This document shows, one piece after another, positions 18,313 through 36,636 of a stretch of 64,000 nt of DNA (position 1 is the stretch's first letter; the number at the start of each line of letters is the position of its first letter). The notes under the pieces are model-generated. The model had not been told where the DNA came from and made no database searches. It saw nothing but the letters and a program-made list of their open reading frames with translations. The position numbers were made by a program, and so were the translations under genes. Source of the DNA: Minisyncoccota bacterium (GTDB lineage Bacteria; Patescibacteriota; Minisyncoccia; Moranbacterales; UBA1568). The DNA lies in assembly GCA_051306005.1 (NCBI GenBank), contig JBPPMJ010000003.1, positions 97,764-161,763 of the forward strand. Direction: 5' to 3'.

Positions 18313-18419
18313 AAATATAAAAATATTGCCTTTGCCTGAGTATTGATTGGATATGTTGAACCTGAAAATAAACGTTGATTTGCCCGCAGTCAGAAAATCG
18401 ACCGTGAGTGAAAAAAAGA

Positions 18420-18495: not shown

Positions 18496-18512
18496 CTCTT
18501 GTTGAGCATTTT

Positions 18513-18982: not shown

Positions 18983-19174
18983 TTGAGGCACTCTGCGTAG
19001 AATGATTGGAAGAGTGAGTAGGCATAGAAACCAAACAAGAGTATACCGATACTATACCATACTCTATGTGAATAGTAGAGGTAACGAGAGTTGACGAGGG
19101 CTCTGATATTGTGGCACAGTACAGAGGATCAGGTTTGAGACAAATACTATGCTTCAAGAATGGCATGATCAACC

Positions 19175-19261
19175 GGAGGCGTGTGTGAGTGGTTGAAACA
19201 GACAGTCTTGAAAACTGTTATACCCGGAAGGGTATCGAAGGTTCGAATCCTTCCGCCTCCG
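19175..19261 (+). tRNA. tRNA-Ser (anticodon TGA), long variable arm
   Basis: GGAGGCGTGTGTGAGTGGTTGAAACAGACAGTCTTGAAAACTGTTATACCCGGAAGGGTATCGAAGGTTCGAATCCTTCCGCCTCCG. Anticodon loop CTTGAAA. An AT-rich putative island begins immediately 3' of it. Confidence 0.85.
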
Positions 19262-19362
19262 CAGCTAGCTTGAAGTATCGAGAGACCCGAGAACCCTCTG
19301 TTTAAGCCAAAGAATAAATGGCAAAAAATAGAGAGTACACGGGACTCGAACTCAAGCACAAT

Positions 19363-20048: not shown

Positions 20049-20291
20049 ATGTTTGACGTAGGATTTATTAACTAATTTTTTAAGGTACAAAAAAGGTCCC
20101 CCAACCAAAGCTATAACTCTTTCGAGCTACCCAATGTCCTTTCGGAACACTGACCTACGTCAATAAGTGCCGGTCGGGAGACCGTCTTTATGACGTAGGT
20201 GACTTTATTGCGCCATGCTCACATCGCTATGAGTTTAGGCTGGTTGTATCTGCATTATAGATTTTTAAAGGGCTTTTATCAACTGAATGCT

Positions 20292-21668
20292 TTATTTTAG
20301 GGTGGTTTCATACTCTTTTAGACTTAATGTTTTATTCTTTTTAATCACTAGGCGACTTTTTAGACTGCCTAGAAGTTCTCTCTTTTCAGCCATTTTTCCT
20401 TCTTTGAGAATGTATTTTGCATAGGCACGGATATCAAAAGGGGATTCCTCAGAAGTCTCTACTTTGCCGCTTAGCCGAAGCACTGATTTTTGAAAATGGT
20501 TATAGCGGTTAACCTCATCTTCAAATTGCCTTTTGAGACCAATTTCATTTATATCTATCTTATCGATCAGCTTTGTCATTTCCTCGATTAACAATTCTTC
20601 TCTCAGGTAGCCAAGTTTGCAACTATGATCTCGAGAGCGAGTACATCCGTAGTAAATATAAGTAGCGGTATTTCCATTCTTAAGTTTCTTGTACTTTTCA
20701 TCTGCGGTCACACCTGATCCGCAGAGACCACAAGTTATGAGCCGAGTGAAAGCAAACTCTTTTCCTTCTCTAATAATTCTTGCTCGTTTTAGTTGTTCTT
20801 GTACCAGATCAAAAAGTTCTTTAGAAATAAGGGGCTCATGTTTTCCTTGATACCAGTTACCGCTATTTCTAGGATATTCAAAGACTCCATAGTAAAAACT
20901 CGTTTGGAGTAAACGGTAGAGGTTACTTAGCGACATATGTTTATTACTCTTAGCTTTGAAGTTGAGATCAAACTTGAGCCAGTGGTATACTTTTCGTCCT
21001 GACCAATTTTCGTAAGCTACTTTTTCAAATATTTGTTTTACAATTGCAGATCGCATAGGGTCTATTTCTACGTGACTTTTACGGTCTGGCGTAATAGCGT
21101 TCAGATAACCAGTGGGAGCCATGGTTGGCCACAGTCCCATTTCACACCTCATTCGAAGTCCTCGTTTCACATTGATGCCTCGATTATCATTTTCTAGTTT
21201 TGCTTGCGATCCTAAGATCATCAGGAGGAATTTCTCGTTAGGGGAGTTGCTAAAGCTCTGGCCGTAGGTACGAATTTCATGCAGGAGCTGTTGATCCATG
21301 AGGTCTACTAGAGAACCTAAGTCACCAGCGTTTCTACTAAGTCTGTCTGGCGCCCATGTCAGAATAGCGTTGAAGCGACCTAAGCGAATATCATTTATAA
21401 GTTCGTTGTAAACTGGTCGTCCGCCTGAATTTTTAGCCGAGTGGCTTTCTCTCCGAATTTCTACAATCTCCAATCCATCCCTCTCGGCTATTTGAAGCAT
21501 CTCCTTAATCTGAGAGTCGATAGAAAGGACTTGCCGTTCCTCGGATTCCGTCGATTTTCGAGCGTAGAGGCAGTACTTCATCTGTAGGGGAGCTTCTATA
21601 TTCTTTGCCTCTGAAGCTGCCCGTAATTGCGTTATATGGTCGTTCATATCCCAATGAATGACAGACAT
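20292..21668 (-). CDS. Large serine recombinase (resolvase domain + recombinase domain + zinc ribbon)
   Basis: N-terminal resolvase catalytic region YARKSTESEERQVLSIDSQ (aligns with YxRVST...S-x2-Q; the catalytic Ser is in KST). A recombinase domain and a C-terminal Cys cluster (CGLCGS...C) follow. 458 aa. Confidence 0.85.
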   Translation of the reverse strand: MSVIHWDMNDHITQLRAASEAKNIEAPLQMKYCLYARKSTESEERQVLSIDSQIKEMLQIAERDGLEIVEIRRESHSAKNSGGRPVYNELINDIRLGRFNAILTWAPDRLSRNAGDLGSLVDLMDQQLLHEIRTYGQSFSNSPNEKFLLMILGSQAKLENDNRGINVKRGLRMRCEMGLWPTMAPTGYLNAITPDRKSHVEIDPMRSAIVKQIFEKVAYENWSGRKVYHWLKFDLNFKAKSNKHMSLSNLYRLLQTSFYYGVFEYPRNSGNWYQGKHEPLISKELFDLVQEQLKRARIIREGKEFAFTRLITCGLCGSGVTADEKYKKLKNGNTATYIYYGCTRSRDHSCKLGYLREELLIEEMTKLIDKIDINEIGLKRQFEDEVNRYNHFQKSVLRLSGKVETSEESPFDIRAYAKYILKEGKMAEKRELLGSLKSRLVIKKNKTLSLKEYETTLK

Positions 21669-21700
21669 CCCTAAACTAGTCTAGGCCCCTCCAAAAGCCC

Positions 21701-23158
21701 CTAAAATCCCTCTGGTTTCTCAGCAAAACCTCGGGAGCCTCTCTTATTGAGTTGTATGGCTTTCCCAGCCAATATGGAAAAAGCGTCTGCAAGATCATCG
21801 TGCTTTTCCTTTCCAAACCCCACGAGATTTTCTAGAAGATCCTCACAACCACTTTCTGGAAATTGAATTTTACCAGAAGTTACTAAATTACTTACAGACA
21901 TTAAACGGGCTCGTTTATCAGAAAATACTTGTACAGTTTCTGTACGATAGTAGTCTCTGTTTAATTGTTCCGCCGCAACACGTTGATAGCCAACGTCTTC
22001 AATGAGGATAATAACTTTTCCGTAGTGTTGAGTGGAATCGTGAAGCATTTTTATTGCAGAGAGTGTGTCTTCAAAATTTAATCTTTTCTCTATTGGATTC
22101 GGAAGTATGTATATTCTAAAGTCTTCTCCATACCCAGTAACTAATCCTACTACAAGAGCAGTAAAGTCAGCTGTTGATTTTTGGGAAATAGCTAAGTCAG
22201 TTCCAATGAGGACTCTTTTCCAGTGTTTGTCTGGTAGATTTTTATAATATTTAATTTGGTCATAGCTGAAGATTTGGTCGTCGTCAGGAATGATACGGAG
22301 GAGATATTCTCTTTGCCAAGCAATTTCGTTTCCAACTTTTTTTCTTTCTTTCTCAATCTCTGATTCATCGAGGTACTTCCCCTTCCAAAGAATCTCATCA
22401 TTTTCATTTAGTAGTGGATATTTCTTAAAAACTCCTTCACCAGATCCTTCTTCAATATCACTCTTTAAATGCATAAGGAGGGAATCTTCGTGAAGAAGAT
22501 TTCCGACTATCACCAGCTTGGTATTTTTATCACCAAGAGGAATAATTTCTCCTTTAAGCCAGTTGTATGTTTTTTGCCTCCCTTCTTTAGTTTTAGCTGA
22601 AGCCATATCTTCCACATCGTCACCGATAATCAGATCGGGACGGTGTTGTCCGTGACGCATCCCACGAATACTTTGTTCTGAAGAAGCAGCTGTAATACGG
22701 GCATTCATATTGGAAAAAACGAGTGAAGTTGATCCCCATTCGTCACTTTCTTCTTGAAATGGACCGAGGTCATTTTTAAGTAAGGTATTATTCTCGAGCT
22801 CTCTTTTTAAGTTAGTCATATGTTGCTTTGCCTGAGTTCTTGTTTGGCAAAGGATAACAACAAACTTCTTTTGCTGTTTACCAAGGATTGCCCAGATAGG
22901 ATAGGAAGTGGTAATGATAGTGGATTTACCAGATCCACGGAAAGCTACGATATAGAGGTTTTTGATAGTCTCGTCTTCCGTAAGGTTGAAAATTTCCCTT
23001 TGAAACTGAGCAGTTTCATACTTTACATAGTGAGCAAAGTAAAGGTGAAAAAACATAAAATGACTTTGCTGAGTAATAGCAATACGTACAGTTCTATCGG
23101 CAATCATTCTATCTATTACCTCATCAGGTATTTGTTTACTTATTTTTGACATCTCCAT
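21701..23158 (-). CDS. Phage terminase large subunit
   Basis: Walker A AFRGSGKST, ATPase coupling motifs, and a C-terminal RNase-H-like nuclease region (IGTDLAISQKSTADFTALVV...). Tightly followed (33 nt) by the recombinase gene. Confidence 0.75.
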   Translation of the reverse strand: MEMSKISKQIPDEVIDRMIADRTVRIAITQQSHFMFFHLYFAHYVKYETAQFQREIFNLTEDETIKNLYIVAFRGSGKSTIITTSYPIWAILGKQQKKFVVILCQTRTQAKQHMTNLKRELENNTLLKNDLGPFQEESDEWGSTSLVFSNMNARITAASSEQSIRGMRHGQHRPDLIIGDDVEDMASAKTKEGRQKTYNWLKGEIIPLGDKNTKLVIVGNLLHEDSLLMHLKSDIEEGSGEGVFKKYPLLNENDEILWKGKYLDESEIEKERKKVGNEIAWQREYLLRIIPDDDQIFSYDQIKYYKNLPDKHWKRVLIGTDLAISQKSTADFTALVVGLVTGYGEDFRIYILPNPIEKRLNFEDTLSAIKMLHDSTQHYGKVIILIEDVGYQRVAAEQLNRDYYRTETVQVFSDKRARLMSVSNLVTSGKIQFPESGCEDLLENLVGFGKEKHDDLADAFSILAGKAIQLNKRGSRGFAEKPEGF

Positions 23159-23534
23159 TATCGTTAATGGCCGCTAAACGTAAAGCTTCTCTCACCACTT
23201 CTTCTTGCTCGGGAGTGAGGTTTTCTTGTTTCTCTATTTTAGCTGTCACCTTTACTCGTTCCTTAAACTTCTCATGACGGTGATTGAGCCAGAATCTAAT
23301 AGCAGGAAAATTCTTTTCTCTGATGAGAGTGATAAGTTGGGATTCACCCATATCGTTAACCAGAGCCTCTCCTTCAGAGAGGGCTTCTTCAAGACTCTTC
23401 TTAAACTTCTTATCCTTATCTCGCCAGCGATATATGGTAGCTCGCGAAACACCTGATTTTTCACAAGCCACTTGGATAATGGGAACTCGTTTTAAGTTCT
23501 CAAGAAAGAGTTTTTTAGTGGCATGAGTTTTCAT
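23136..23534 (-). CDS. Terminase small subunit-like HTH DNA-binding protein
   Basis: N-terminal HTH (ACEKSGVSRATIYRWRDKD) and the position immediately upstream of, and overlapping, the terminase large subunit gene. Confidence 0.5.
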   Translation of the reverse strand: MKTHATKKLFLENLKRVPIIQVACEKSGVSRATIYRWRDKDKKFKKSLEEALSEGEALVNDMGESQLITLIREKNFPAIRFWLNHRHEKFKERVKVTAKIEKQENLTPEQEEVVREALRLAAINDNGDVKNK

Positions 23535-24304
23535 ATGCGTTTTGCTTTAATACCAAAAGTTTTCTCAAAACGATCAATGACAGTCTGGCAGTACTCGGGA
23601 TCAAGTTCTATGAGAACACATTTACGCTTAGTTTGTTCACAAGCCATCATAGTAGAACCTGAGCCACCAAAGCAGTCATAGACAACATCATCAATGGCAC
23701 TGCTATTTAGAATAAGTCTCCTTAGTAAACCAATTGGTTTTTGAGTAGGATGGAGAGCACTTTTGTTTGGCTTGGGGCAAAAAAGAATAGATTTATCTTT
23801 TCCCTTATGAAAGAGATGGGTTCCATACCAGCCAACGGCAATAAGCTCGTGCATCGGTAAGTAATCTTTCCGTCCGATGACAGGGTGATTTTTAATCCAG
23901 ATGACAAGTTGTGAAAATTTCAATCCCGCTTCTTTCATGCCATCCCGAAGAGCAAAGACCATAAGGTCAGAGTTAAAGATGTAGAAGGTATTCTTTTTGG
24001 AGAGGTAGGGCAGAAGGGGAGTGATCCAGTCTTTGGTAAATTTGGCATACTCAGACTCTGAAGTAATATCATCATTTAAGATATTCTTATTAACTTTCAC
24101 TTGGCTAAAGCCGACCTTACTTTCGGTGTAGAGTACGCCGTAAGGGACATCAGTTAATACGAGAGATACTCTTGTATCTTTGAGTGCCTTATATATCAAG
24201 TTTGTATCTCGAGCATCTCCACAAATAAGGATATGATCTCCAATCCGAAATTGATCACCGTACCTAATTAAGTTTTCTGGCTTTTTGGTTGGTAAGTTTT
24301 TCAT
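23531..24304 (-). CDS. DNA methyltransferase (N6-adenine/N4-cytosine, beta class)
   Basis: Motif IV variant TDVPYG precedes motif I CFGGSGST. This order is typical of beta-class amino-MTases. Confidence 0.75.
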   Translation of the reverse strand: MKNLPTKKPENLIRYGDQFRIGDHILICGDARDTNLIYKALKDTRVSLVLTDVPYGVLYTESKVGFSQVKVNKNILNDDITSESEYAKFTKDWITPLLPYLSKKNTFYIFNSDLMVFALRDGMKEAGLKFSQLVIWIKNHPVIGRKDYLPMHELIAVGWYGTHLFHKGKDKSILFCPKPNKSALHPTQKPIGLLRRLILNSSAIDDVVYDCFGGSGSTMMACEQTKRKCVLIELDPEYCQTVIDRFEKTFGIKAKRI

Positions 24305-25538
24305 AGCGGTTGATAATTAAATCACAAAATATAGGTTCTATTTCTACAAGGTAGACTTTGCGTTTAAGTTGCTCGCCAGCGATTAGGCTACTACCTGAAC
24401 CACCAAAGCCATCGAAGATAATGTCACCTGGCTTCGTACATCTGCGAATAGCTTTTTCATAGACGGTAGGTGGTTTCATAGTCGGGTGCTCGTATTCATT
24501 ACCCGCTAAACGTTTCACAAGCCAGATGTCTATAAGATCAAGAACATCATCAATAAGACGATTTCCCGTACTGACATCTTTATTCATAACTTCATTGAGA
24601 CTCTGTTCATTTTTAGAGAGATAAGGCTTACCTTTGATGCCGTAGACACAGGGTTCATAGCATTTACTAAACGCCACTCCCGGGGTAGGATTTTGACCAT
24701 TCTTAATCCATAAGCATACCCGTTTATTTTGAATACCAGATTCTCGATAGAGCTCTTGAAGAAGTCCAATGTAAACTTCGTCGCACCAGTAGAAAATATG
24801 GCAGGCATCATGAGAGATACTAAGAGCATTATCAAGGCTTTGCTTGAGAAACTTTTTGTACTCTGTATCAGTCTTTTGATCTTTGGTTTTACCACCGTAT
24901 GATTGTTTGCCGCCCACTCCCGAATCATATGAAAGCCCTATATTGTATATGGGATCAGAAAATATCATGTGAGCTTTTTCTTTTCCGAAGAGTTTTGATA
25001 TGACATCAGAATCTGTAGTATCTCCACAAATCAGTTTGTGTATACCAAGCTGATATATGTCACCAAGTTTTGTCTTCGGCTTTTTTATTTTTTCTAATTC
25101 TTTTTCAAGCCGAAAATCATCGTCCTCAGTTTCTAGGTATCCATCCCAGATTTGAGAAAGATCGTCTTCGTTGAATCCAATATCTAGAAGTAACCCGACA
25201 TCAAAAGATTTGAGTTTTTCAAAATCCCAATCTCCACCGACAGCATTGCTAGTGAGCATGTACTGTTCATACTCTTTTGAAGTGAGTTTGCGGTTAGGCA
25301 CTCGTACATCTATTTCTTCATCTCCTCGACCGAGAATTTGTAGTACCTTAATACGCTGATGACCAGCAATTATCTTACCATCTGTATCAATTGCGGGGAT
25401 CTCGACTAAATTGAACTTTTTGAGACTCTTCTTGAGGTCATTTACCTGCTTCTCGCTTATAGTGCGAGGATTCTTCTCGTAGGCGAGAAGGTTTTTTACG
25501 AAACGCTTTTCTGTCTGCCATACTAGTTTTTGAGACAT
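24264..25538 (-). CDS. ParB-like nuclease domain fused to DNA methyltransferase
   Basis: N-terminal ParB/Srx-like region (...IIAGHQRIKVLQ...), then MTase motif IV SDPIYN and motif I FDGFGGSGSS. ParB-MTase fusions are common phage orphan methylases. Confidence 0.75.
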   Translation of the reverse strand: MSQKLVWQTEKRFVKNLLAYEKNPRTISEKQVNDLKKSLKKFNLVEIPAIDTDGKIIAGHQRIKVLQILGRGDEEIDVRVPNRKLTSKEYEQYMLTSNAVGGDWDFEKLKSFDVGLLLDIGFNEDDLSQIWDGYLETEDDDFRLEKELEKIKKPKTKLGDIYQLGIHKLICGDTTDSDVISKLFGKEKAHMIFSDPIYNIGLSYDSGVGGKQSYGGKTKDQKTDTEYKKFLKQSLDNALSISHDACHIFYWCDEVYIGLLQELYRESGIQNKRVCLWIKNGQNPTPGVAFSKCYEPCVYGIKGKPYLSKNEQSLNEVMNKDVSTGNRLIDDVLDLIDIWLVKRLAGNEYEHPTMKPPTVYEKAIRRCTKPGDIIFDGFGGSGSSLIAGEQLKRKVYLVEIEPIFCDLIINRYEKLTNQKARKLN

Positions 25539-25626
25539 AATATTGTTTTTATTACTTATGCCTCAATTATGAAGTCAAAAAAATCGCCTTCATTTAGGCG
25601 ATTTGAATGCGTTTTATTAATACTAG

Positions 25627-26541
25627 CTATCTTTTCTTCACACGGTCCCGTATAGCTGAAAGTGATAAGTGTTCAAATTCGGGTCTATCTTTTATGTCTT
25701 TGAAGATTTTCATATCTAGCCTACCAAGCTTTTTGCTTTCATTATAAATTTTAAGTATTTTTTTAGTCTCATTAGCTTTTCTAGGGCTTTTTCTAACTCT
25801 CCCGACTGAATATGGATACTTCTTTTTGAAAATATTAAGAGGATCTTTTTCGATAAAATCAATCAATTCTTTTTTTGTAGTATCAATATCAAAGCTTATT
25901 GATTTTTTTGGTTTTTTACCGACAGGAACTCCATATTCATATTGGAAAGAGATTCCGGGATCTGCAGGAATAATTGTGTTAAAGAGTAAGAGTTCAACTA
26001 TGGCATCATAATATCTCCAAGGTAAATTCCATTTTTTCAATAGATAATGAGCCGCACCAAAAACGCTTTCGTTAACTATTTGTGAGGCGTACTTTAATTT
26101 AGCGGGAGTACTTTTTAGATTGGTGCCATCAGCCCAGCTAAAAAACCATCTTCTGTATTCAGGACTTATTGTCTGAGGAAAAATATTGGTATAGATCTTG
26201 TTTATCTCAGTTCTATTAGGAATCATGAAAGCACTATTTGTAGGACTTATTTTAAGAGCTGAACGAACTTCTTTTAGAAGTTTTTGATTATTAAATGAAT
26301 CGAGTAATTCAAGATGAATCATATCTTTATGCTCTCGATTAGCTTTTTTGTAAGAAGCAGTAGTATTGCGAATAACTATTGGAGGAATAAAAAACAGACG
26401 TCTCTCTAAATCTTTTAAATCATTCAGAGAGTAGTCTAACTTTAAGAAATGAGTCTCTTTTAGAGTCTTCCTTGAAATAGGAATGTATTGCTTCAATAGT
26501 GGAGATTTATTACATTCTCCAATAAATCTCTTGATATCCAT
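25627..26541 (-). CDS. Hypothetical protein (very AT-rich, Lys-rich)
   Basis: 304 aa ORF with no recognisable motif. Sits between the MTase/terminase operon and the Type III R-M operon. Confidence 0.4.
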   Translation of the reverse strand: MDIKRFIGECNKSPLLKQYIPISRKTLKETHFLKLDYSLNDLKDLERRLFFIPPIVIRNTTASYKKANREHKDMIHLELLDSFNNQKLLKEVRSALKISPTNSAFMIPNRTEINKIYTNIFPQTISPEYRRWFFSWADGTNLKSTPAKLKYASQIVNESVFGAAHYLLKKWNLPWRYYDAIVELLLFNTIIPADPGISFQYEYGVPVGKKPKKSISFDIDTTKKELIDFIEKDPLNIFKKKYPYSVGRVRKSPRKANETKKILKIYNESKKLGRLDMKIFKDIKDRPEFEHLSLSAIRDRVKKR

Positions 26542-26601
26542 AGAAAATCTTTACTTTACGGAAGTCTTACTTTGTTGTAAACTAATGGTAACTCAAATTT
26601 T

Positions 26602-26802
26602 ATGAAGAATCAACCAAAGAAAACTGAAGATTACCCAGATATTCTAACTCTTCAAGAAGCATGTGAGCTTCTAAACTGCCATCCAAATACTCTTCGTAAC
26701 TGGGATAACAAGGGTATTTTAAAGGCTATACGATTTGGGACAAGAAAAGACAGAAGGTATAAGAAAGAAGACGTTCTTAATGTTATCAATGAAAGTCATT
26801 AA
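26602..26802 (+). CDS. Excisionase/MerR-like HTH DNA-binding protein (putative R-M controller)
   Basis: 66 aa; LTLQEACELLNCHPNTLRNWDNKGIL is a classic MerR/excisionase-type HTH. Lies 3 nt upstream of mod. Confidence 0.6.
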   Translation: MKNQPKKTEDYPDILTLQEACELLNCHPNTLRNWDNKGILKAIRFGTRKDRRYKKEDVLNVINESH

Positions 26803-26805
26803 AGT

Positions 26806-28350
26806 ATGCCGACATTAAACTGGATTGGAAAAGAAGCGGTAGTAAATCATGATAAAGAGGTTCCTTTTAGACTGTTAAAAAAAGTGAAATCTGCTTCTGC
26901 GGGGAATAATTCTCAGAATCTTATTGTGCATGGAGACAATCTCGAAGCCCTAAAAGCACTTATGCCGTATTATGGTGGGAAAGTGAAGTGTGTCTATATT
27001 GATCCCCCGTATAATACTGGCAATGAAAGTTGGGTTTATAACGATAAAGTAAACTCACCTAAGATTAAAAAGTGGCTAGGAAAAGTAGTAGGAAAAGAGT
27101 TGGAGGATCTTTGTCGCCACGACAAGTGGCTTTGTATGATGTATCCAAGAATGAGTCTACTACGCGATCTGATGTCGGAAGATGGAGCTTTTTTTGTTTC
27201 TATTGACGATGATGAAGGGCAGTATTTGAAAGCAATGCTTGATGAAATATTTGGTAGAGAGAACTTTCTTACTACTATTATTTGGCATAAAAAACATACC
27301 TCGGCTAATGATGCGAGATTCTTCTCTGATAATCATGACTACATTCTTGTTTACACAAAAAATATTAATAAATTCAATATCAATTTATTACCTAGAGAAG
27401 CAATACATGATTCTCGTTATACTAATATAGATAATGATTCTCGCGGTCCTTGGGCTTCGGGTCCTTGTCATGTTAAAACTCCAAGTGCTAAAGACATTTA
27501 TGAGATAACTACACCAAGTGGTAGAAAAGTCTGGCCGCCTAAAAGTACTAGTTGGCGATTTTCTGAAAAGAAATTTGCTGAACTAGTGAAAGATAATCGT
27601 ATTTGGTTTGGTGAGAAGGGAGGTAACATTCCACGCTATAAAAGATTCTTAACAGATGTGCAGCAAGGCATTATTCCTAAGACAATGTGGCTAAGAGATG
27701 AAGTGGGAGATAATCAGGAAGCTAAATCAGAAGTAAAAGATTTAGTTCCGAATAGCCCATTTAATACTCCAAAGCCTACTCGTTTAATTAAGCGTATTTT
27801 ACAACTTTCGACCGATAAGGATTCTATTGTTTTTGATTCTTTCGCTGGCTCTGGGACTACTGGACAGGCAGTCCTGGATCTTAATAAAGAAGACGGAGGA
27901 AATAGAAAATTTGTCCTTGTTGAAATGGAAGATTCTGTAGCGAAAGATATTACAGCTGAAAGAATTAAACGAGCAATTAAAAAGTTCGATTATCAAGACG
28001 GATTTGAGTATTGTGAGTTAAGTGAACCTCTCTTTGATGAGAATGGGCAAATTGAAGAATCCTGTGATTTTAATCAATTTGCAACCTATCTTTATTTTAC
28101 CGAAACACAGACTAATATCGATAAAAATGAGATAAACGGAAATTTCATCGGAAAACACAATGAAAGAGAATATCACCTAATATACAAAGAGAAAGGGGAA
28201 AATGTATTGAGCAAACCCTTTCTAAAGAAACTGCCAAAGAATAATACAATTAAGGTTGTGTATGCAGATAGATGCACTTTAGATGAGGAAGTATTAGATA
28301 AATACAATATTATTTTTAAGCAGATCCCTTACGAAGTTAAAGTTTATTAA
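26806..28350 (+). CDS. mod: Type III restriction-modification methyltransferase (Mod), N6-adenine
   Basis: Motif IV DPPY (VYIDPPYNTGNE) near the N-terminus, motif I FDSFAGSGTTG near the C-terminus, and a central variable target-recognition region. Confidence 0.85.
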   Translation: MPTLNWIGKEAVVNHDKEVPFRLLKKVKSASAGNNSQNLIVHGDNLEALKALMPYYGGKVKCVYIDPPYNTGNESWVYNDKVNSPKIKKWLGKVVGKELEDLCRHDKWLCMMYPRMSLLRDLMSEDGAFFVSIDDDEGQYLKAMLDEIFGRENFLTTIIWHKKHTSANDARFFSDNHDYILVYTKNINKFNINLLPREAIHDSRYTNIDNDSRGPWASGPCHVKTPSAKDIYEITTPSGRKVWPPKSTSWRFSEKKFAELVKDNRIWFGEKGGNIPRYKRFLTDVQQGIIPKTMWLRDEVGDNQEAKSEVKDLVPNSPFNTPKPTRLIKRILQLSTDKDSIVFDSFAGSGTTGQAVLDLNKEDGGNRKFVLVEMEDSVAKDITAERIKRAIKKFDYQDGFEYCELSEPLFDENGQIEESCDFNQFATYLYFTETQTNIDKNEINGNFIGKHNEREYHLIYKEKGENVLSKPFLKKLPKNNTIKVVYADRCTLDEEVLDKYNIIFKQIPYEVKVY

Positions 28351-28354
28351 ATCT

Positions 28355-30628
28355 ATGGAACTTAAGAAATATCAGCAGTCAGCTCTAGATACTCTCAAAG
28401 AATACTTACAAGAGTATGAAAAAGTAGGTACCAAGTATGCTTTTATGGGTATTACGGGTCGTCCCTATATTGCTGATTTTTTCAGCGAGATTCCTTTTCT
28501 GTGTGTCAAAATTCCTACAGGAGGAGGAAAGACTCTCGTAGGATGTCACGCTGTCAGCGAAATAATGCGCTCTGTTCTTAAATATAAGATGGAACGAGGT
28601 GTCGTAATATGGTTCGTGCCCTCAGAAGCAATTAAGACCCAGACACTCAAAAAATTTAAAGATAGAAACGATTGGCACCGAAAAGTTTTGGATGAGGAAT
28701 TTGATAATAATATCAGGATCTTTTCTAACGAAGAGGCGCTACGTATTAGAAAAGAAGATGTAAAAGACAACCTGTGTATTATTATCTCTAGTCTTGAGGC
28801 GTTTCGAAAAGAGAAGAAGCTACAAAATAAATATAAAGTGTACCAGGAGAATGGTGCGCTTATAAGTCACTTTGAAAATCTTGAAGATCCTGATGGTCTT
28901 GAGAAAGACGAAGAGGGAACGATTATAAATTCCTTGGCTAATGTTGTTCGTATAAGTGAGCCGCTTATCGTTATCGATGAAGGACATAAGACCAAAACAG
29001 AACTCTCTATTAATTTTATTAAGGATCTTAATCCTAGTTTTATTATTGAATATACAGCGACTCCTCGAGACGGAAGCAATATTCTCGTAGATATCTCAGC
29101 TAGCGAACTTAAAGCTGAGGAAATGGTAAAAATTCCTATCGTTCTTGAGAGTTCATCGCAGTGGCAAAATTCTATTGCGAATGGTATTGATAAACGTAAT
29201 GAACTTGAGAAAGAAGGAAAGAAAAATAAAAGTGAATATATTCGCCCTATTGCTTTGATTCAAGCTCAGCCTAACAGTAAAACACAGGCTAATGTCACTG
29301 TTGAAGAAATTAAAGAATACTTACTTAGTTCAAAAATATCTGAAGACGAGATCGCTATCAAAACTTCTTTTAGGAATGATTTAGATGGGGTAGATCTCTT
29401 TAGTAAGAAATGTAAGATTCGTTACATTATTACTGTTAGTGCGTTGGCTGAAGGTTGGGATTGTTCTTTTGCCTATGTCCTTATTTCGGTTGCCAATGTT
29501 GGTGCAAAGATCGCTGTGGAGCAAATCATCGGACGTATTATTCGTATGCCCTATGCAAAGCGTAAGGTAAATGAAGCTTTGAATCGGTCATATATATTTG
29601 CTTCTGCAAAAAACTTTAACGAAGCGGCAACTAATATTATCTCCGGTCTTCAGAAAAACGGGTATAGCAAGCTGGATTTGATTGGTGCTTCTTCAGATGG
29701 AGAAACTGCTAAAGATCCGAAAGTAGTTAAACGTGTAGTAAATAAAGACTTTTTTGTTCCACTCGTGACTCTAGATAATGAAAAGATTACCTTCGAGGAA
29801 CTTATTGGAGAAGAATTCAAACTTGCTAAGCAGAACGCTGAGTTTGAATTCAAGACCCATTATGATAATGATGGGCGTGCACTTATTGATATCGAAGATG
29901 ATAATCAATGGCATAAAGGAAAACAGCAGGTATTGAATCTGATCTATAAAGATAAAAATCTTTCAAAAAATGAGCTAATCCAGTGGCTAGATAAGAGACT
30001 TCGCTTTACCATTTTAGGAAAACCAGACAAGGTGAAATTTATTGATAAAGCACTTGAACATCAATTAAAAACATCTTCTCTAGCCTCACTCTCAGTAAAT
30101 CGTTATATTCTGCTTAATAGATTGGGTGAAGTCATCCATAGTGTGCTTGAAGAATATGCTAAAAAGCAATTCGACCAATTAATGACAAAGAAGAAAATTT
30201 CGGTGAAGACTTTTGAAAGTTTTCCAGAGATCATTACTCTTAAGCAGGAAATTCCACAAGAATTCAATCGTAATTATTACGAGAAAATAGATAAGCTTAA
30301 TAAGGAAGAATTAAGCTTTGTAGAACGGCTTGACCCTGATACTTTACCGAATATTAAATTTTGGATACGTAGTCGAGAGAAGCAAGACCCATTCTTTATT
30401 CAAGGCTGGAGAAAGAACAAGTTTTATCCTGACTTTGTGGTGTTTACAAAAAAAGGAAATATTATTGCTCTTGAGTGGAAAGGGGAGGATAGAGTTAGTA
30501 ATGAGGATACAGCATACAAAGTCTCTATTGGTGATATGTGGTCCAAGCTTGGTAAAGGAAAACTTCATTTTTTCTTAGTTCACAATGGAAATGTTGAGGA
30601 GGTTTTGAATAGCCTTAAAGATTTATAG
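28355..30628 (+). CDS. res: Type III restriction enzyme (Res), SF2 helicase-nuclease
   Basis: Walker A KIPTGGGKT, DEGH box (VIDEGHK), helicase C-terminal motifs, and a C-terminal PD-(D/E)xK nuclease motif (YPDFVVF...IALEWKG). Confidence 0.85.
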   Translation: MELKKYQQSALDTLKEYLQEYEKVGTKYAFMGITGRPYIADFFSEIPFLCVKIPTGGGKTLVGCHAVSEIMRSVLKYKMERGVVIWFVPSEAIKTQTLKKFKDRNDWHRKVLDEEFDNNIRIFSNEEALRIRKEDVKDNLCIIISSLEAFRKEKKLQNKYKVYQENGALISHFENLEDPDGLEKDEEGTIINSLANVVRISEPLIVIDEGHKTKTELSINFIKDLNPSFIIEYTATPRDGSNILVDISASELKAEEMVKIPIVLESSSQWQNSIANGIDKRNELEKEGKKNKSEYIRPIALIQAQPNSKTQANVTVEEIKEYLLSSKISEDEIAIKTSFRNDLDGVDLFSKKCKIRYIITVSALAEGWDCSFAYVLISVANVGAKIAVEQIIGRIIRMPYAKRKVNEALNRSYIFASAKNFNEAATNIISGLQKNGYSKLDLIGASSDGETAKDPKVVKRVVNKDFFVPLVTLDNEKITFEELIGEEFKLAKQNAEFEFKTHYDNDGRALIDIEDDNQWHKGKQQVLNLIYKDKNLSKNELIQWLDKRLRFTILGKPDKVKFIDKALEHQLKTSSLASLSVNRYILLNRLGEVIHSVLEEYAKKQFDQLMTKKKISVKTFESFPEIITLKQEIPQEFNRNYYEKIDKLNKEELSFVERLDPDTLPNIKFWIRSREKQDPFFIQGWRKNKFYPDFVVFTKKGNIIALEWKGEDRVSNEDTAYKVSIGDMWSKLGKGKLHFFLVHNGNVEEVLNSLKDL

Positions 30629-30658
30629 CTGTTAATAATCTATCTAAGTATTTAAATA

Positions 30659-33118
30659 ATGAAAATTATAAGATCATTCTTATATTTTATACTTCCGCTT
30701 CTTGCAAAAGTTTACAAGAAGAAGAAATTTATATACGAAAGAGATAGAGAAGAAGGCAAGGTCGATAAGATTTTGCTTTTTCTTAACAAAATTTTTGGAT
30801 GGATCTATTTTAAATTCAAATGGTATTCAGAGGTTTTTCGATTCAAAAGATCTTCTGTCAGATCAAAAGTTAAAGAATATGGAGTTATTACAGAGATATT
30901 AGGAGCTTCAAAGGAACTTCTAATACTACTTATTTTAGGTTTTACTTTTTATTTGCTTGGAGATTGGTTTGTTAATTCAGTCTCAGCGTATCTCTCTAAT
31001 CTCAAGCTTCTTCAAGGAATTTCCTTAAAGATAGAGGCAGTGACTCTCCCCGAGACTGAGTTCATCCGGTTATTTTTAGAAATTTCAATTGGAGCTATTT
31101 CTGCAATTCTAGGAATAATTTTTGCGCTTTATGCAGTTGGCATTCAACTTAGTACTCAAAATTTTTCTTCTGAGGTATCTGAATATCTAAACTCAGAAGT
31201 TGCTACAAATGTTTATTTTAAACTACTAGTTTTCACTGATCTTTTGGCCATTTTTCTTTTATTGAGAAATGGCTTTTTCCCTTCATCTCAGATGATGTTT
31301 AGTTTTTTTGTGATATGCATTCTTGTTGGAGTTTGCGTATTGGGTATTGTTGTCTTCAAGCAACAATACCTTTTTATCCTTAAACCAAAATATCTTTTTG
31401 AGAGACTAAGTAAAGATATAAAAGATAGTATTATTGCTGCATCAGATTTAGGTTCATTCGAGCAAAAAAGTTGGAACATTATCCATCGTTTTCGTGACAG
31501 AACAAAAACAAGTTTAGAATTAATCGAAAGACTATTTGAGGACCTGATAGAGTCAAAGAAAACAAATGATTTAAAGTACGCACCTATTGTTTTGGGATAT
31601 GTTCTTTCTAGATACGTGGAGTCTAAGAGGTATATAAATAATGAGAAAGATTGGTGGTTTTATCACTCTCAGCAGCCAGCTAAATCTGAGGGGATGGCTG
31701 GATTTGCTCTAAAGAACAACTATGAAATTAGGGGAATGGGACCATTATTCGAAACAAGAACAAACTTTTCTTGGTTTGAGGATATGGTTTTCAGAATCTT
31801 AAAGAAGGTGCAGGAACATTCAAGTAAGGAGAATGATCTCTTAGGGTACGTCATTCAGGCTTATCAGAGAATACTGAGTAGAGAATTTTCTTATCCAGAA
31901 AGAAATAAGTTAAGAGGTGCGTATACTAACCAAGAATTTGTAGTTTATGAAAAGTTTTTCCCTAGTTTTCTTGAGCTAAGTAGTTCTTTAGAAGAAGAGG
32001 ATTTTATCGATTTTCTGAACGCATACTTTGCAATTGGACTGACTCTTATTGAGGGATCTAAGCATAAGAAGCTTAAGCGCGCGATTAGTTCATTTTATAA
32101 TAAGCTAGGAGGCAATAGAGAGCACTTTAAGGCAATTAATCTTCCCACCATTCAGTATGAAGAAATGCTCAATTATTGGGATATGATTGATCTTGAAAGA
32201 GAAACTGAGGGAAAAATTATAACCCCTCATGATTTCTTGGAAAAAGAAGTTATGTTATCAGTCAAGAACAAGGAAGAAAGAGTTTTTAAAAAGTATTTCA
32301 AAGAAATTCTTGAGCACCAGGACAAGTGGCTAAAAGAGCTAGTCGAAAAGAAAGATTATAGAAATTGTGCAGAACTTATAAAAATGCGTCTTATTTGGTT
32401 GGCACGGCTTTTTTATCTAAAGAAATCAGAAGTCACAGAGGAGTATGTGAGTCATATTAAGATACTTATTCTTTACGTAGGCTTAATTCCTAAAGATATT
32501 GTTGTTGAGTTGGATTTTCTAGAAAATTTAGAAAGACTGATTTTTCCCTGTATTTTGGAGAAAAGATTTAAGCTTCTATCGGAACTTTTGCCTCTACTCA
32601 TTATTATTCTTGCCACTCTCAATCAAGATGAAAAAGATACTGAAAAATTCATCCTCACAAATAGATTACTGGTTGTACTGGGAGGTTTCTTATATTTACA
32701 TTCTGAATTTGAAGAAGATAGAAAAGGTCTCATGATTTACTCCAAAATTTTAGAGGTAGCTTACAATCCAGACACTCTTGTTACATGGTTTGTTTCCATG
32801 AAAGACATAAAAGAAAAAGCAGGATTAGATATAACTATGAAGATTATTGAAAGAGAAACGTCTCGTTATCATCATTGGTACGGTAATATTCATCATCAAA
32901 TTTTTAACTTGCCAAAGAAATATGGAAATGTGCCACATTATTCTGGTCTACAAGAGATAGCAGATCATCCTAGTGAATTTATTTCTCAAATAAGTCACTA
33001 TCATGTAGATGCAGAAGATGAGAGTATCGAAAAATTTGTTGAATGGATGCAAAAAAGAAAAGCTGTTGAGAATTTAATTCTAACTTTAAGAAAAAGAAAG
33101 AATGAAAAGTCTAACTAA
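30659..33118 (+). CDS. Uncharacterised 819 aa protein: 4-5 N-terminal TM helices plus a large helical soluble domain
   Basis: Starts 31 nt after the res stop. Hydrophobic helices within residues ~80-240, then ~580 aa with no Walker, nuclease, HEPN or other motif I can recognise. Confidence 0.5.
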   Translation: MKIIRSFLYFILPLLAKVYKKKKFIYERDREEGKVDKILLFLNKIFGWIYFKFKWYSEVFRFKRSSVRSKVKEYGVITEILGASKELLILLILGFTFYLLGDWFVNSVSAYLSNLKLLQGISLKIEAVTLPETEFIRLFLEISIGAISAILGIIFALYAVGIQLSTQNFSSEVSEYLNSEVATNVYFKLLVFTDLLAIFLLLRNGFFPSSQMMFSFFVICILVGVCVLGIVVFKQQYLFILKPKYLFERLSKDIKDSIIAASDLGSFEQKSWNIIHRFRDRTKTSLELIERLFEDLIESKKTNDLKYAPIVLGYVLSRYVESKRYINNEKDWWFYHSQQPAKSEGMAGFALKNNYEIRGMGPLFETRTNFSWFEDMVFRILKKVQEHSSKENDLLGYVIQAYQRILSREFSYPERNKLRGAYTNQEFVVYEKFFPSFLELSSSLEEEDFIDFLNAYFAIGLTLIEGSKHKKLKRAISSFYNKLGGNREHFKAINLPTIQYEEMLNYWDMIDLERETEGKIITPHDFLEKEVMLSVKNKEERVFKKYFKEILEHQDKWLKELVEKKDYRNCAELIKMRLIWLARLFYLKKSEVTEEYVSHIKILILYVGLIPKDIVVELDFLENLERLIFPCILEKRFKLLSELLPLLIIILATLNQDEKDTEKFILTNRLLVVLGGFLYLHSEFEEDRKGLMIYSKILEVAYNPDTLVTWFVSMKDIKEKAGLDITMKIIERETSRYHHWYGNIHHQIFNLPKKYGNVPHYSGLQEIADHPSEFISQISHYHVDAEDESIEKFVEWMQKRKAVENLILTLRKRKNEKSN

Positions 33119-34193
33119 GTTTCAAAAAAGAAAGAGTCGTTCAATTGAAGATCCTTTTTTAAGTTACATAAAGGGATTTTCTGGATTGGATAATCTAGTG
33201 AGAGATATTACAGATCTGCATAAGGAAACATTCTATATTAGAAATTCTTTATTTCCTTTGCAGAGATCCTCTAGGAGTGTTGCATCTAATACGGAAGCAA
33301 CTTTCTATGTTGAGTGTGAGGATTCTGTAGTAAAAAATGATTTATCTAGCTACCTATTTGATAAGTACTCTAGGTATCGAGATAGTCTTTATGGAAATGG
33401 AGATGATCTGGGAAGTTTTTTTGGAACCTATGCTTCTGAGCTTATGATAAAAGGCATATTTTTTTCAGAAGTCGTATGGGATAGTATTGACATTGACGGA
33501 AGAACTTATATTTTACCAGTTGACTTTAGTTATATTCATCCCTCAACGATGGGATTCGTAAGAAAGAACAGTAAGATAGTCGGCTATAAGCAAGTTTATA
33601 GTATTATAACTAGCTTCTTAAGAAGAAAAGATTATTCATATAAAGATTTAATAAAGAATAGAAAAGTTACATTTTCCACAGATGAAATATTCTACGGCTG
33701 TTACCCGTTTTCTTTGCACTCTCCCACCAGGGAAAGTAAGAAACTTCTAAAGGCTGCTAACCGTTTTATGGAGTTCTCCCTAGATACTGCTACGGCAGGA
33801 GCCTACCCAGAGAACCATCAATTAAATATTGAAAGAGCTAAGTATAAATCAGTTAAATTGGAGAAGGTTAAGGCAACAGTAGCGAGAAGCAAAATAAGAA
33901 AAATATTTAACTATATACCTGAGGCAGGTGAGCTAAAGATTACAGAGTATTATGATATTTTTACTGTTATTAGATACAGAAAGTTTCTGAATAAGATGCG
34001 AGACTATATGATTAGTGAATTCAATAAACAAGTAATTAGTGAAATCTTAAGAAAGAATAATCTTTCAGTAAAGGCGACTCTAAAATACAAGGGTTTTCTT
34101 AATAATATTGAAATCAATAAAGCTTTCGATGCTTACAAGAACGGAAGTTTATCAAGCCAAGATCTTATAAAGGAAATAGTAGAGAAGCCTTAG
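33102..34193 (+). CDS. Uncharacterised 363 aa protein
   Basis: Overlaps the upstream gene by 17 nt (translational coupling). No recognisable motif. Confidence 0.45.
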   Translation: MKSLTKFQKRKSRSIEDPFLSYIKGFSGLDNLVRDITDLHKETFYIRNSLFPLQRSSRSVASNTEATFYVECEDSVVKNDLSSYLFDKYSRYRDSLYGNGDDLGSFFGTYASELMIKGIFFSEVVWDSIDIDGRTYILPVDFSYIHPSTMGFVRKNSKIVGYKQVYSIITSFLRRKDYSYKDLIKNRKVTFSTDEIFYGCYPFSLHSPTRESKKLLKAANRFMEFSLDTATAGAYPENHQLNIERAKYKSVKLEKVKATVARSKIRKIFNYIPEAGELKITEYYDIFTVIRYRKFLNKMRDYMISEFNKQVISEILRKNNLSVKATLKYKGFLNNIEINKAFDAYKNGSLSSQDLIKEIVEKP

Positions 34194-34198
34194 TTTCT

Positions 34199-35299
34199 AT
34201 GAACTTTCTAAAAGATAAATCCTATTACTCAGATCTCTATGACTCTTTTACTATAGAGGAATGTAAGCGTACAGAAAAAGGAATATCAGAAAAAGACCTT
34301 CCAAAATATAAAGGACATAAACTTACTACTGAGGAATGGGGTCGTTTAAGAATACCGTTTACGGAAGTGGGGTTGTATTTCCTTAAAGGAGAGCGTTATG
34401 CAAAGAAATTAGAAACCATTAGTAAGTGGCTAGAAGAAGATAGAAAAAAAGAAGAGAAATTTGATAATGCTAAAGAACCAAAAGGTATTCGTTGTCTTGG
34501 CTGTAGCTCTCTTCAGATGACCTGCATTTCTAAGGACTTCATGACTGATAAAGATAGTAACCAAGAAGAAGTCCTCTTTATGTTTGAGTGTGATGATTGT
34601 CACAAAAGGAGAGCTTTCTGGGAAAATGGAAAAGAATGGGAATATAGTCCGAAGTGTCCAAAATGCCAATCAAAGCTTGATAGAGAAACAACTCGTAATG
34701 GGGATTCTCTTGTTACCAAAGAAGTTTGTACGAATTGCGATTATAAAGATACAGATACTTTAGATCTTACTGTAAAAGAAGCAGTAGCGGAAAGGATTGA
34801 TCCAAACTTTGCTTCTGACCAGAGAAAGTATTGCCTTTCGGAGACAGAGGGAAATGAATATATCAGAGATAGGGATAGCATGAAGTACGTCTCAGACAAG
34901 CTCAAAGATAAAGAAGAAAATAAGGAGGTCTTTGAAGAGATAGAGAAAATAAAAAAGCTTACCATTATGGAGCTTCAAAACCTCCTCACTCCACTTATAG
35001 AAAAGGCAAACTACACTCAGTTTCTTTTTAAAAAACCTGTCATTGAAAAAGACGTTATTCTCTCCTTTAGCCTCCAAGATACCCAAACTGGCAGGACAAA
35101 TATGGAAGGTACCTCTGATCTCAAAAGACTCCTCAAAAAAGCCCTGGAGTCTACTAATTGGAGACTTATGAGTGAAGGCCTCACTTATCGCCTAGGATTC
35201 CTTCAGGGTCGCTTACGGGGCGTAGAAGGGGAGCAAGCTCTTCGTAAGTTAGCTGAAATGTCCTTAAAGAAAAAAGTTGCTTCAAAAATCTCTCATTAA
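34199..35299 (+). CDS. Uncharacterised 366 aa protein with multiple zinc ribbons plus a helical C-terminal domain
   Basis: Starts 5 nt after the previous stop. Four CxxC pairs (CLGC, CDDCH, CPKC, CTNC) in the N-terminal half. The C-terminal half is charged and helical. Confidence 0.45.
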   Translation: MNFLKDKSYYSDLYDSFTIEECKRTEKGISEKDLPKYKGHKLTTEEWGRLRIPFTEVGLYFLKGERYAKKLETISKWLEEDRKKEEKFDNAKEPKGIRCLGCSSLQMTCISKDFMTDKDSNQEEVLFMFECDDCHKRRAFWENGKEWEYSPKCPKCQSKLDRETTRNGDSLVTKEVCTNCDYKDTDTLDLTVKEAVAERIDPNFASDQRKYCLSETEGNEYIRDRDSMKYVSDKLKDKEENKEVFEEIEKIKKLTIMELQNLLTPLIEKANYTQFLFKKPVIEKDVILSFSLQDTQTGRTNMEGTSDLKRLLKKALESTNWRLMSEGLTYRLGFLQGRLRGVEGEQALRKLAEMSLKKKVASKISH

Positions 35300-35324: not shown

Positions 35325-36269
35325 TTATTTCGATCCCATGAGCTCAAGAAATTTCATAGGATCAATCGTGAGACCGTTTATACGAACGGAAAGATGGAGG
35401 TGGGGTCCGAGAGAGTATCCCGTATTTCCACTCAGAGCTATTAAGTCTCCTTTTTCTACACTCGTGCCTTTGGGTACTTTTGTTTCAGAAAGATGCATAT
35501 AGAAACTCATTAATCCTTTGCCATGATCAATAATTATGCTGTGTCCGTAATTCCTAAAAGTTCCCGCAAAAGCTACTGTACCAGAATTCATACTATAAAC
35601 AGGCGTTCCCTCAGATGCTCGAAAATCGGTACCTTGATGACTCAGACTTACAGAGCCTGTTTGTCTTTTGTAACCATAGACATCAGTAATAGTAGGGGTC
35701 CCATCAAGGGGCAGACGGAACTCTCCGCTCCAGAGCTTCGCTGGACCTGTGGTAGCAATCACAGAGTTAATAATGGCGGTGTCTTTGGCTAAACTATCTG
35801 TAAGAGTATGTTCTGCTTCAGGAGTGTTACCTCCAAGTTGTTCGGGAATATCAAAGTTTGATGTAGCAACGTCTCTTTGTCCCACGGTGATCTTCTCTTC
35901 GATTACCCGACCATCATTAAGGGTGAGCACCACCGGGTACACGCCAGGTTTTTTATGGAAATCAATACCAACGAGTCCTGCTAAGATTTCTTCATTAATA
36001 AATACCGGAATTGGCTCGCCATCAAAAGTAAGAGACTGGATGGCGGACAGAGAACCGAGTCCATTTATAGTAATTTTCACAGGCTCTCCTGGAATGACTT
36101 CCGTAGGGGCGATAGAAAGCGAGACTGGCGCTACTGGTACAGTGTCGACTTCTTCTTTCTGAGTAGTAGGCACCTTATTTTCTACCTCTGGCTGTTTTTT
36201 GAACTGTGGTACAAAAAAGTATGTAGCCAGTAAGAAAAGCGGAATGATGAGCCAGAGGAGTTTTTTCAT
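35325..36269 (-). CDS. M23 family metallopeptidase (LytM-like)
   Basis: M23 signatures HQGTDF...GHSIIIDHG...GNTGYSLGPHLHLSV, after an N-terminal signal/TM segment MKKLLWLIIPLFLL. Start placed at that Met. Confidence 0.8.
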   Translation of the reverse strand: MKKLLWLIIPLFLLATYFFVPQFKKQPEVENKVPTTQKEEVDTVPVAPVSLSIAPTEVIPGEPVKITINGLGSLSAIQSLTFDGEPIPVFINEEILAGLVGIDFHKKPGVYPVVLTLNDGRVIEEKITVGQRDVATSNFDIPEQLGGNTPEAEHTLTDSLAKDTAIINSVIATTGPAKLWSGEFRLPLDGTPTITDVYGYKRQTGSVSLSHQGTDFRASEGTPVYSMNSGTVAFAGTFRNYGHSIIIDHGKGLMSFYMHLSETKVPKGTSVEKGDLIALSGNTGYSLGPHLHLSVRINGLTIDPMKFLELMGSK

Positions 36270-36319
36270 AGAAAGAAAAGCAATGTATCTAATTTCTTTA
36301 TGGCTAGTATAACATGCTT

Positions 36320-36348
36320 TTGACAATACCCTAAGGGGGGTATATAAT
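36320..36348 (+). promoter_or_regulatory. Sigma70-type promoter with an embedded CsoR operator
   Basis: TTGACA-17 nt-TATAAT. The 17 nt spacer ATACCCTAAGGGGGGTA(T) is a GC palindrome closely resembling the Bacillus subtilis CsoR operator ATACCCTACGGGGGTAT. It lies 25 nt upstream of the csoR ATG. Confidence 0.6.
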
Positions 36349-36372
36349 AAAAGTACTTTATACAAACAATCT

Positions 36373-36636
36373 ATGAATACACAGAAGCAAAAACTCATTA
36401 GACGACTCAAGATTATCGAGGGCCAAGTGAGGGGTCTCCAAGAAATGATCAACAAAGATGCCTATTGCATAGATATCATTACTCAAACCTCAGCAGTCAA
36501 GCAGGCACTGACAGCCGTAGAAGATCAGCTCATGGAAGTTCATCTCACCACCTGTGTCACACGACAAATGAAATCAGGACAGGAAAAAAAGGCTCAGGAG
36601 GAAATTATGAAGGTGTATAAACTCAAACGTAAATAA
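36373..36636 (+). CDS. csoR: CsoR/RcnR-family metal-sensing transcriptional repressor
   Basis: 87 aa, LIRRLKIIEGQVRGLQEMI...CIDIITQTSAVKQAL...H; the DUF156 helical bundle pattern with Cys/His metal ligands. Confidence 0.8.
   Translation: MNTQKQKLIRRLKIIEGQVRGLQEMINKDAYCIDIITQTSAVKQALTAVEDQLMEVHLTTCVTRQMKSGQEKKAQEEIMKVYKLKRK

Follow-up and report, generated by a model that had tools for sequence, protein, structure and literature searches.

Bacteria of the Candidate Phyla Radiation (CPR; Patescibacteria) represent a substantial part of bacterial diversity; they are mostly without CRISPR, and very few of their defenses have been characterized. Hotspots of defense genes are said to have been described by Rousset et al. 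in 2022 in P2-like phages and P4-like satellites. Dallas (ddgA) and ldgA are functionally validated, Patescibacteria-restricted defense genes whose products have no recognizable fold (PMC12366544). Dallas, which is described as essentially a single gene, acts against T4 in an abortive-infection-like manner, and an escape mutation lies on the side where the large terminase subunit, TerL, faces the portal (PMC12366544). Here we describe a locus in a 64,000-nucleotide (nt) stretch of a Minisyncoccota genome (contig JBPPMJ010000003.1; hereafter the window), where a Type III restriction-modification (R-M) system is followed on the same strand by three genes, g1, g2, and g3. The original prediction took these three genes for one undescribed defense or R-M accessory system. 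The best explanation, to which we give a probability of about 0.5, is a CPR element with a slot for defense genes, in which g1 and g2 are a swappable cargo pair of the anti-phage type.

In a word-indexed homolog search, the clusters numbered 37 (g1), 11 (g2), and more than 281 (g3). Of the 229 g3 relatives detected in GTDB species representatives, 80 loci in reference genomes were collected; the g1 loci comprise 28 from metagenomes plus individually looked-up contigs. All open reading frames (ORFs) of the collected loci were scanned with BLAST and family hidden Markov models. Clustered at 90% g1 identity, the 37 loci with g1–g2 represent 23 non-redundant lineages, and in every one of these loci where the sequence allows, g2 lies directly downstream of g1. 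The two genes overlap by 4–17 nt in nearly all loci, and their pairwise identities are tightly correlated (r = 0.974 over 190 pairs). Both are intact, full-length, and overlapping across the 23 lineages, which span 25–95% identity and share many invariant residues. A very distant g2 relative (P0252, locus L128; profile E-value 1e-7) is likewise preceded by an overlapping gene of the DUF2254 type. The distribution of the pair covers CPR phyla and one Planctomycete (Scalindua). The g1–g2 pair is an autonomous, translationally coupled two-gene module whose members are obligate partners and diverge together, and it is this pair, rather than the trio, that forms the unit of interest.

The conservation of the trio in related genomes, which had been suggested as a check, turned out against it: all three genes occur together in 4 loci, versus 28 with g1 and g2 without g3 and 83 with g3 alone. 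Downstream of g1–g2, g3 is absent in at least 18 of the 22 non-redundant loci with enough sequence, and only 2 of the 80 g3 reference loci contain g1–g2, as judged within the sequence fetched around g3. Where g1 identity is ≥90%, the next gene is g3 in L082 and a recombinase gene in L114 and L126. The clearest single result is a close relative of the window, L127, which has the same chromosomal site with swapped cargo. In this case, g3 is 88% identical at the nucleotide level and the host flank (M23 peptidase, DUF305, P-type ATPase) is 82–99.9% identical; homology to the window begins 14 nt into g3, and everything upstream of that point differs. Tight spacing of g2 and g3 (5 nt in the window) is not evidence of a partnership, because other cargo genes abut g3 equally closely. 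The L127 cargo itself (L127:2738-9989) encodes a 967-amino-acid (aa) protein without a Pfam match, a 1072-aa AAA_11/AAA_12 helicase with a PLD domain, and an SLFN/AlbA_2 protein, and is a possible candidate for a further defense system.

The surroundings of g3 show what kind of DNA carries the pair. In at least 37–45 of the 80 g3 loci, an opposite-strand block upstream of g3 encodes the serine recombinase, TerL, the small terminase subunit (TerS), and methyltransferases (MTases); the ParB-MTase is upstream of g3 in 37 of the 80, and recombinase homologs (60–79% identity) adjoin TerL in many. Homologs of the 66-aa HTH gene (66–78% identity) are the first plus-strand gene in 8 g3 loci, where they precede unrelated cargo and lie 0.6–9.5 kb from g3. 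The distance from the ParB-MTase to g3 varies from 181 bp to 8.7 kb, and the cargo operon invariably ends with g3. Since the minus-strand block and the HTH gene recur around g3 with unrelated cargo, the element has a backbone composed of a leftward arm (recombinase, TerL, TerS, MTases) and a rightward arm that begins with HTH and ends with g3, with the cargo slot between these two genes. This compact integrative element occupies positions 20292-35299 of the window (~20.3–35.3 kb) and is also represented by loci L006, L009, L011-L090, and L122-L127. Gene order is variable, with g3 between TerL and the recombinase in L024 and L028. The earlier description of a complete HTH-mod-res unit was correct for mod and res, which retain all motifs and match PADLOC models; the HTH gene belongs to the element backbone instead. 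Similarly, the view of the downstream genes as extra cargo rather than R-M fragments applies to g1 and g2, which recur as a unit in many lineages, and not to g3, a backbone gene.

The element was also considered as a full prophage, and this was rejected: the region to the left of the recombinase has tRNAs and host genes only and is free of genes for capsid, portal, or tail. A role of g3 as a host gene serving as the integration target was rejected as well, given its presence in multiple copies in some metagenome-assembled genomes, its varying right-hand neighbors, and its position in L024 and L028. In comparison with phage satellites of the phage-inducible chromosomal island type (PICI/cf-PICI-like), the element has a serine recombinase, TerS, and TerL, and no structural genes were detected. 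It may be a satellite-like carrier of defense islands. Our literature search found no description of this CPR element, which is apparently undescribed and is widespread in the CPR.

The g3 protein has four CxxC pairs (at C99, C131, C153, and C177), as was originally noted, and all four are conserved across the family, forming two Cys4 zinc ribbons. The family has 281+ homologs. This CPR protein is widely conserved, with ~50% identity between phyla, and its C-terminal part contains a conserved TNWRLMS…GRLRG motif. No relatives of g3 were found in Pfam (zinc-ribbon noise only), PHROGs, PDB, or phage genomes. Excision, replication, and regulation are guesses at its role.

In other loci the slot between HTH and g3 holds Shedu (L006/L011), Hachiman HamB, a Type IIG R-M system, and two KAP/QatA-like NTPases, as well as a Hhe/Mokosh-like helicase-nuclease, a RelA-SpoT protein, cyclases of cyclic oligonucleotide-based anti-phage signaling systems (CBASS), Type II MTases, and PDC candidates; some slots are empty. 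Six of the nine largest cargo proteins match PADLOC models, and among 67 further cargo proteins 214 PADLOC families were matched, including the CBASS cyclases and Type II MTases. The HTH…g3 slot is a mobile-element defense hotspot in the sense of the P2/P4 concept. In the window it contains the complete Type III R-M system followed by g1–g2, and g1–g2 occupies this hotspot in four lineages. Three large proteins encoded directly upstream of g3 match neither Pfam nor PADLOC (L026:5692-9354, 1220 aa; L013:5933-8929, 998 aa; L037:7559-9964, 801 aa) and are candidates for additional novel defense genes.

Linkage of g1–g2 to R-M genes extends across lineages. In 8 of the 23, g1 starts 0–30 nt after, or overlaps, a same-strand upstream R-M gene, and the types involved are I, II, IIG, III, and IV. 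Type III R-M is the most recurrent single partner (window, L097, L101/L102). The res genes of L097, L101, and L102 are only ~24% identical to that of the window and are directly followed by g1–g2; in L101 and L102, res and g1 overlap by 4 nt. Other neighbors are Type I systems (L002, L105), a Dam-like gene (L103), a SNF2-PLD gene with an Eco57I-like MTase, i.e. IIG-like (L121), and GmrSD, an EcoRI-MTase, and AbiEii (L005). In the Scalindua locus (L119), the pair lies beside a gene for a TIR-TPR protein and toxin-antitoxin genes. At L120:10001-16084, g1–g2 is flanked on one side by housekeeping genes (GroES/EL, LemA, M48 peptidase) and on the other by a serine recombinase gene in convergent orientation; a 367-aa protein without assignment and an Imm_superinfect/SHOCT gene are encoded further on. 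L120 may be a minimal island, perhaps the smallest mobile context of the pair.

The g1 protein was originally described as having 4–5 transmembrane helices, a helical domain, and no catalytic motif, and this description agrees with our analysis. Four to five hydrophobic segments lie between aa 75 and 232 and are followed by an all-helical remainder, and a fold search retrieved generic helical repeats only, with no enzymatic or effector fold. The layout is an N-terminal DUF2254-like domain of 4–5 transmembrane helices (aa ~75–240) and a ~570-aa cytoplasmic alpha-solenoid. According to this prediction, g1 is a polytopic membrane anchor carrying a large alpha-solenoid, in other words a protein-binding platform without an enzymatic fold. 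The window g1 scores 19.8 bits against DUF2254 (PF10011), below the cut-off of 28.8; homologs exceed the threshold, nearly all of them carry a precomputed PF10011 match, and so does the partner gene in the distant locus L128. The transmembrane core (aa 120–266) aligns to profile positions 40–168. Compared with DUF2254 proteins, however, g1 is twice the usual length, and the ~570-aa alpha-solenoid replaces the usual C-terminal domain. The DUF2254 family has no known function, and nothing on DUF2254 in defense was found in the literature searched.

The predicted structure of g2 contains the wing, stem helices, clip, and crown of a portal, so that g2, according to a model of moderate confidence, is folded like the portal protein of tailed phages. 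The original prediction, which did not anticipate this fold, had named a structural match to a portal as evidence against a defense system. Such a match came up for g2 at the level of the fold, in a genomic context unlike that of a morphogenesis gene. Every g1–g2 neighborhood annotated with Pfam or PHROGs is free of genes for capsid, protease, adaptor, or tail, and g2 is not part of a morphogenesis module with TerL, protease or scaffold, and major capsid genes. In most g1–g2 lineages, the 10 kb around the pair contain no terminase, and the close g2 family is missing from IMG/VR. Searches with tblastn of g1, g2, and g3 against 50,697 GenBank phage genomes found no relatives, and a plasmid tblastn with g2 and a distant g1 relative gave no match. 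The context of g2 does not fit a morphogenesis gene, because annotated neighborhoods lack virion genes, terminases are mostly absent, 78 of the 80 g3 loci show no g1–g2 in the fetched sequence, and the searches found no phage or plasmid relatives. The literature searched contained no portal-like defense proteins.

The features of the window are collected in Table 1. The ORF lengths (819, 363, and 366 aa), the plus-strand orientation, the 17-nt overlap, and the 5-nt gap between g2 and g3 all agree with the original account, as does the AT-rich setting: the GC fraction, 0.32–0.35 over ~26–35 kb, compares with ~0.42 for the flanks and jumps at ~35.3 kb. The close linkage of res and g1 was also correctly recognized, although the distance from the res stop to the g1 start is 30 nt rather than 31. 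The suggested profile check of the three proteins returned nothing above threshold in Pfam, PADLOC, NCBIfam, or PHROGs and no known family. No match at E ≤ 0.1 to PADLOC-DB v2, which includes Kiwa, Zorya, and PDC candidates, was found for g1, g2, or g3, and PDB sequence searches with the three family profiles found nothing. All three have conserved homologs and are consequently real genes rather than chance ORFs. Type III R-M models and motifs were found in 26806-30628 only; g1–g3 match no R-M model.

Table 1. Features of the CPR element in the window (positions numbered from the first nucleotide of the window).
Feature	Position	Strand	Description
Large serine recombinase	20292-21668	-	Left end of element; phrog_95 integrase, 6e-59
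TerL	21701-23158	-	phrog_38, 1e-78; block conserved in g3 loci
TerS	23136-23534	-	phrog_4044, 4e-12; block conserved in g3 loci
DNA methyltransferase	23531-24304	-	Backbone; phrog_498/phrog_620 and NCBIfam MTase matches (both MTases together); divergent from cargo operon
ParB-N-fused methyltransferase	24264-25538	-	Backbone; phrog_498/phrog_620 and NCBIfam MTase matches (both MTases together); divergent from cargo operon
304-aa AT-rich ORF	25627-26541	-	Between ParB-MTase and HTH; no family match; homolog seen in L036 only
HTH_17 (excisionase/MerR-like)	26602-26802	+	Left-hand backbone gene of cargo slot; Pfam HTH_17, 2.7e-11
mod (Type III R-M methyltransferase)	26806-28350	+	Cargo; PADLOC MTase_III, 1.2e-194; Pfam N6_N4_Mtase; DPPY and FAGSG motifs
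res (Type III R-M restriction subunit)	28355-30628	+	Cargo; PADLOC REase_III, 7.5e-87; Pfam ResIII; Walker A (GGGKT), DEGH, PD-ExK
g1	30659-33118	+	819-aa membrane protein; first gene of conserved pair
g2	33102-34193	+	363-aa portal-fold protein; obligate partner of g1; 17-nt overlap with g1
g3	34199-35299	+	366-aa double zinc-ribbon protein; right-hand backbone/anchor gene of cargo slot

The 304-aa ORF may be variable element cargo or a regulator. In a promoter and terminator scan, counts were within the range of shuffled sequence, and no terminator-like site was found at the res-g1, g1-g2, or g2-g3 junctions. Two terminator-like plus-strand hairpins with T-tails lie at 31246-31371, inside the region coding for the g1 transmembrane domain, and are probably due to chance, the regional count not being above shuffled expectation. 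To the right of g3, the mechanical call of an M23 peptidase ORF (35325-36455) starts at a far-upstream TTG; the gene of the relative (L127) encodes 313 aa, so that the true start is probably the methionine of MKKLLWL… near 36270. The following genes, for DUF305, an HMA P-type ATPase, and cupredoxins, are a host copper-handling cluster. At the other end, a cluster of tRNA-Arg(CCG), tRNA-Arg(GCG), and tRNA-Ser(UGA) at 18238-19262 lies a short way to the left of the recombinase and may be a landmark of integration; serine recombinases leave only ~2-bp cores. A 234-aa ORF (19404-20108) lies between the tRNA cluster and the recombinase.

The linkage to R-M and other defense genes and the residence in a defense hotspot leave the idea of a novel defense or R-M-associated system standing for the g1–g2 pair, as the best remaining reading, and not for the trio; we see an even chance that the pair is an anti-phage module. 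It is best read as a new defense-associated pair, possibly one in which a portal mimic is tethered to the membrane. In such a mechanism, g2 would form a portal-like ring that is held at the inner membrane by contact with g1, and the ring would serve as a mimic of, or bait for, the packaging and assembly machinery of a phage, either the terminase-DNA complex or capsid and scaffold. It could simply sequester this machinery, or its engagement could trigger g1 to perturb the membrane in an abortive-infection-like response; in both cases g1–g2 would be a late-acting second line behind R-M. We favor this mechanism, while regarding it as doubtful. Framed more broadly as a new anti-phage class – a domesticated portal-fold ring, tethered by a DUF2254/alpha-solenoid protein, that traps or senses packaging machinery or incoming DNA, is repeatedly recruited behind R-M systems of all types, and rides in the hotspot of terminase-bearing, capsid-less CPR elements – the proposal is a tentative one that we hold to be possible.

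Several observations weigh against the interpretation of g1–g2 as a defensive portal-mimic pair. The g2 monomer model has a predicted local distance difference test (pLDDT) score of 62, which indicates moderate confidence only, and the stem/clip region (211–284) falls below 50. The predicted clip appears very short, and in real portals the clip is the part that binds terminase, which weakens the terminase-decoy model. Homology to portals is not established at the sequence level: the window g2 matches no portal profile in Pfam (e.g. PF04860), PHROGs, or NCBIfam, Phage_portal matches are confined to 2 of 71 broader g2-family members and are sub-threshold (best E-value 0.0065), and hhalign of the g2 family against HK97 gp3 gave a non-significant probability of 4%. 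TerS and TerL are encoded by several g1–g2 carriers (window, L094, L114, L126), as would suit a packaging role for the element. The tight spacing of g2 and g3 in four lineages might point to a functional connection, although the spacing of other cargo is just as tight. Finally, co-hitchhiking on mobile DNA, and not defense, may be what explains the link to R-M genes.

It is conceivable that g2 is a working portal and g1 a membrane or assembly factor, with the pair serving the element's own packaging or transfer; a satellite could, for example, supply its own portal together with TerS and TerL and hijack the capsid proteins of a helper phage. The portal fold, the presence of both terminase genes within 10 kb of the pair in the four carriers just named, the classification of L126 as viral in IMG/VR, and the precedent of the T4 portal, which assembles at the membrane via gp40, are all compatible with this account. 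The rarity of the pair in g3 loci (2 of 80 within the fetched sequence) nevertheless indicates that the element does not need it, and most g1–g2 lineages lack a nearby terminase and are placed inside R-M operons or toxin/TIR islands. In addition, annotated neighborhoods lack capsid genes, sequenced phages have yielded no relatives, and TerL in the window is ~8 kb away on the opposite strand. A genuine portal is unlikely on these grounds. The pair could alternatively assist R-M directly by stationing restriction enzymes, or capturing DNA, at the membrane where phage DNA enters, by means of a portal-like, DNA-binding ring, a use in keeping with the ability of portal rings to encircle DNA and with the close or overlapping placement of g1 behind R-M genes in 8 of 23 lineages, L101 and L102 among them. 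A specific protein partnership is improbable, however, with five mechanistically different partner types (I, II, IIG, III, IV), and many g1–g2 loci have no adjacent R-M gene (L119, L120, L094, L114); we consider this role quite improbable.

The original idea of a three-component system, in which g1, g2, and g3 combine a membrane effector with a zinc-ribbon sensor, draws on the position of g3 only 3–5 nt after g2 in four diverged lineages (window, L001, L082, L108/109; 26–63% identical). It is made very unlikely by the absence of g3 from 18 of the 22 g1–g2 loci with room for it, by the different genes that follow g1 proteins of ≥90% identity in L082 and in L114/L126, and by the cargo swap upstream of a conserved g3 in L127. 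Moreover, g3 is about ten times more widely distributed and follows Shedu, KAP, HamB, and other cargo equally tightly, or no cargo at all. A decaying prophage remnant without current function would account for the portal fold and the location in mobile DNA. It is scarcely credible in view of intact, full-length, overlapping ORFs in 23 lineages, tight co-divergence with many invariant residues, and a spread over CPR phyla and a Planctomycete. A swappable cargo pair of the anti-phage type in a CPR defense slot is the explanation that we prefer.

If this proposal is true, phages are countered with one of their own core structural proteins, in a copy carried by a host or mobile element, which would be a new principle of immunity, and the exapted portal fold would be a new example of virus-to-host domestication. 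The HTH…g3 slot would also offer a handle for the discovery of CPR defenses, as it holds several large cargo proteins without any known match, which are candidates for further new systems. Close spacing within an operon can be deceptive, as the locus illustrates: the last of the three "coupled" genes serves as backbone anchor of a hotspot and not as a component of the system.

Among known proteins, the closest to g2 are the portals of tailed phages and gene transfer agents, including small portals of the HK97, Mu, RcGTA, and P23-45 types. Unlike these, g2 has no significant profile match and no adjacent capsid, protease, adaptor, or same-strand TerL gene; sequenced phages lack its family, a membrane protein is coupled to it in all cases, and the clip of g2 appears minimal. 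The architecture of g1–g2, with a fold assignment that depends on a model of moderate confidence, seems to be new in kind, being absent from the literature searched and from PADLOC. Kiwa (KwaA/KwaB) and Zorya, which are membrane-anchored anti-phage complexes, resemble the pair in the translational coupling of a polytopic membrane protein to a soluble partner possibly able to engage the DNA or machinery of a phage, in their defense-island lifestyle, and in the lack of an obvious enzymatic effector. They differ from it in sequence, as their PADLOC models do not match, and the partner of g1 has a predicted portal fold rather than a DUF4868 or MotB-like protein. The slot shares with the P2/P4 hotspots an organization in which conserved flanking backbone genes, here HTH and g3, bracket defense content that is swapped even between close relatives. 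The flanking genes are unrelated, however, and the carrier, a CPR element, encodes a serine recombinase, TerL/TerS of its own, and a ParB-MTase and has no capsid genes. Dallas and ldgA, compared here by description only, are linked to the CPR as g1–g2 is and have no recognizable fold. On the same descriptive basis, the portal-facing site on TerL at which a T4 mutation escapes Dallas is the kind of target that would be expected for a portal mimic.

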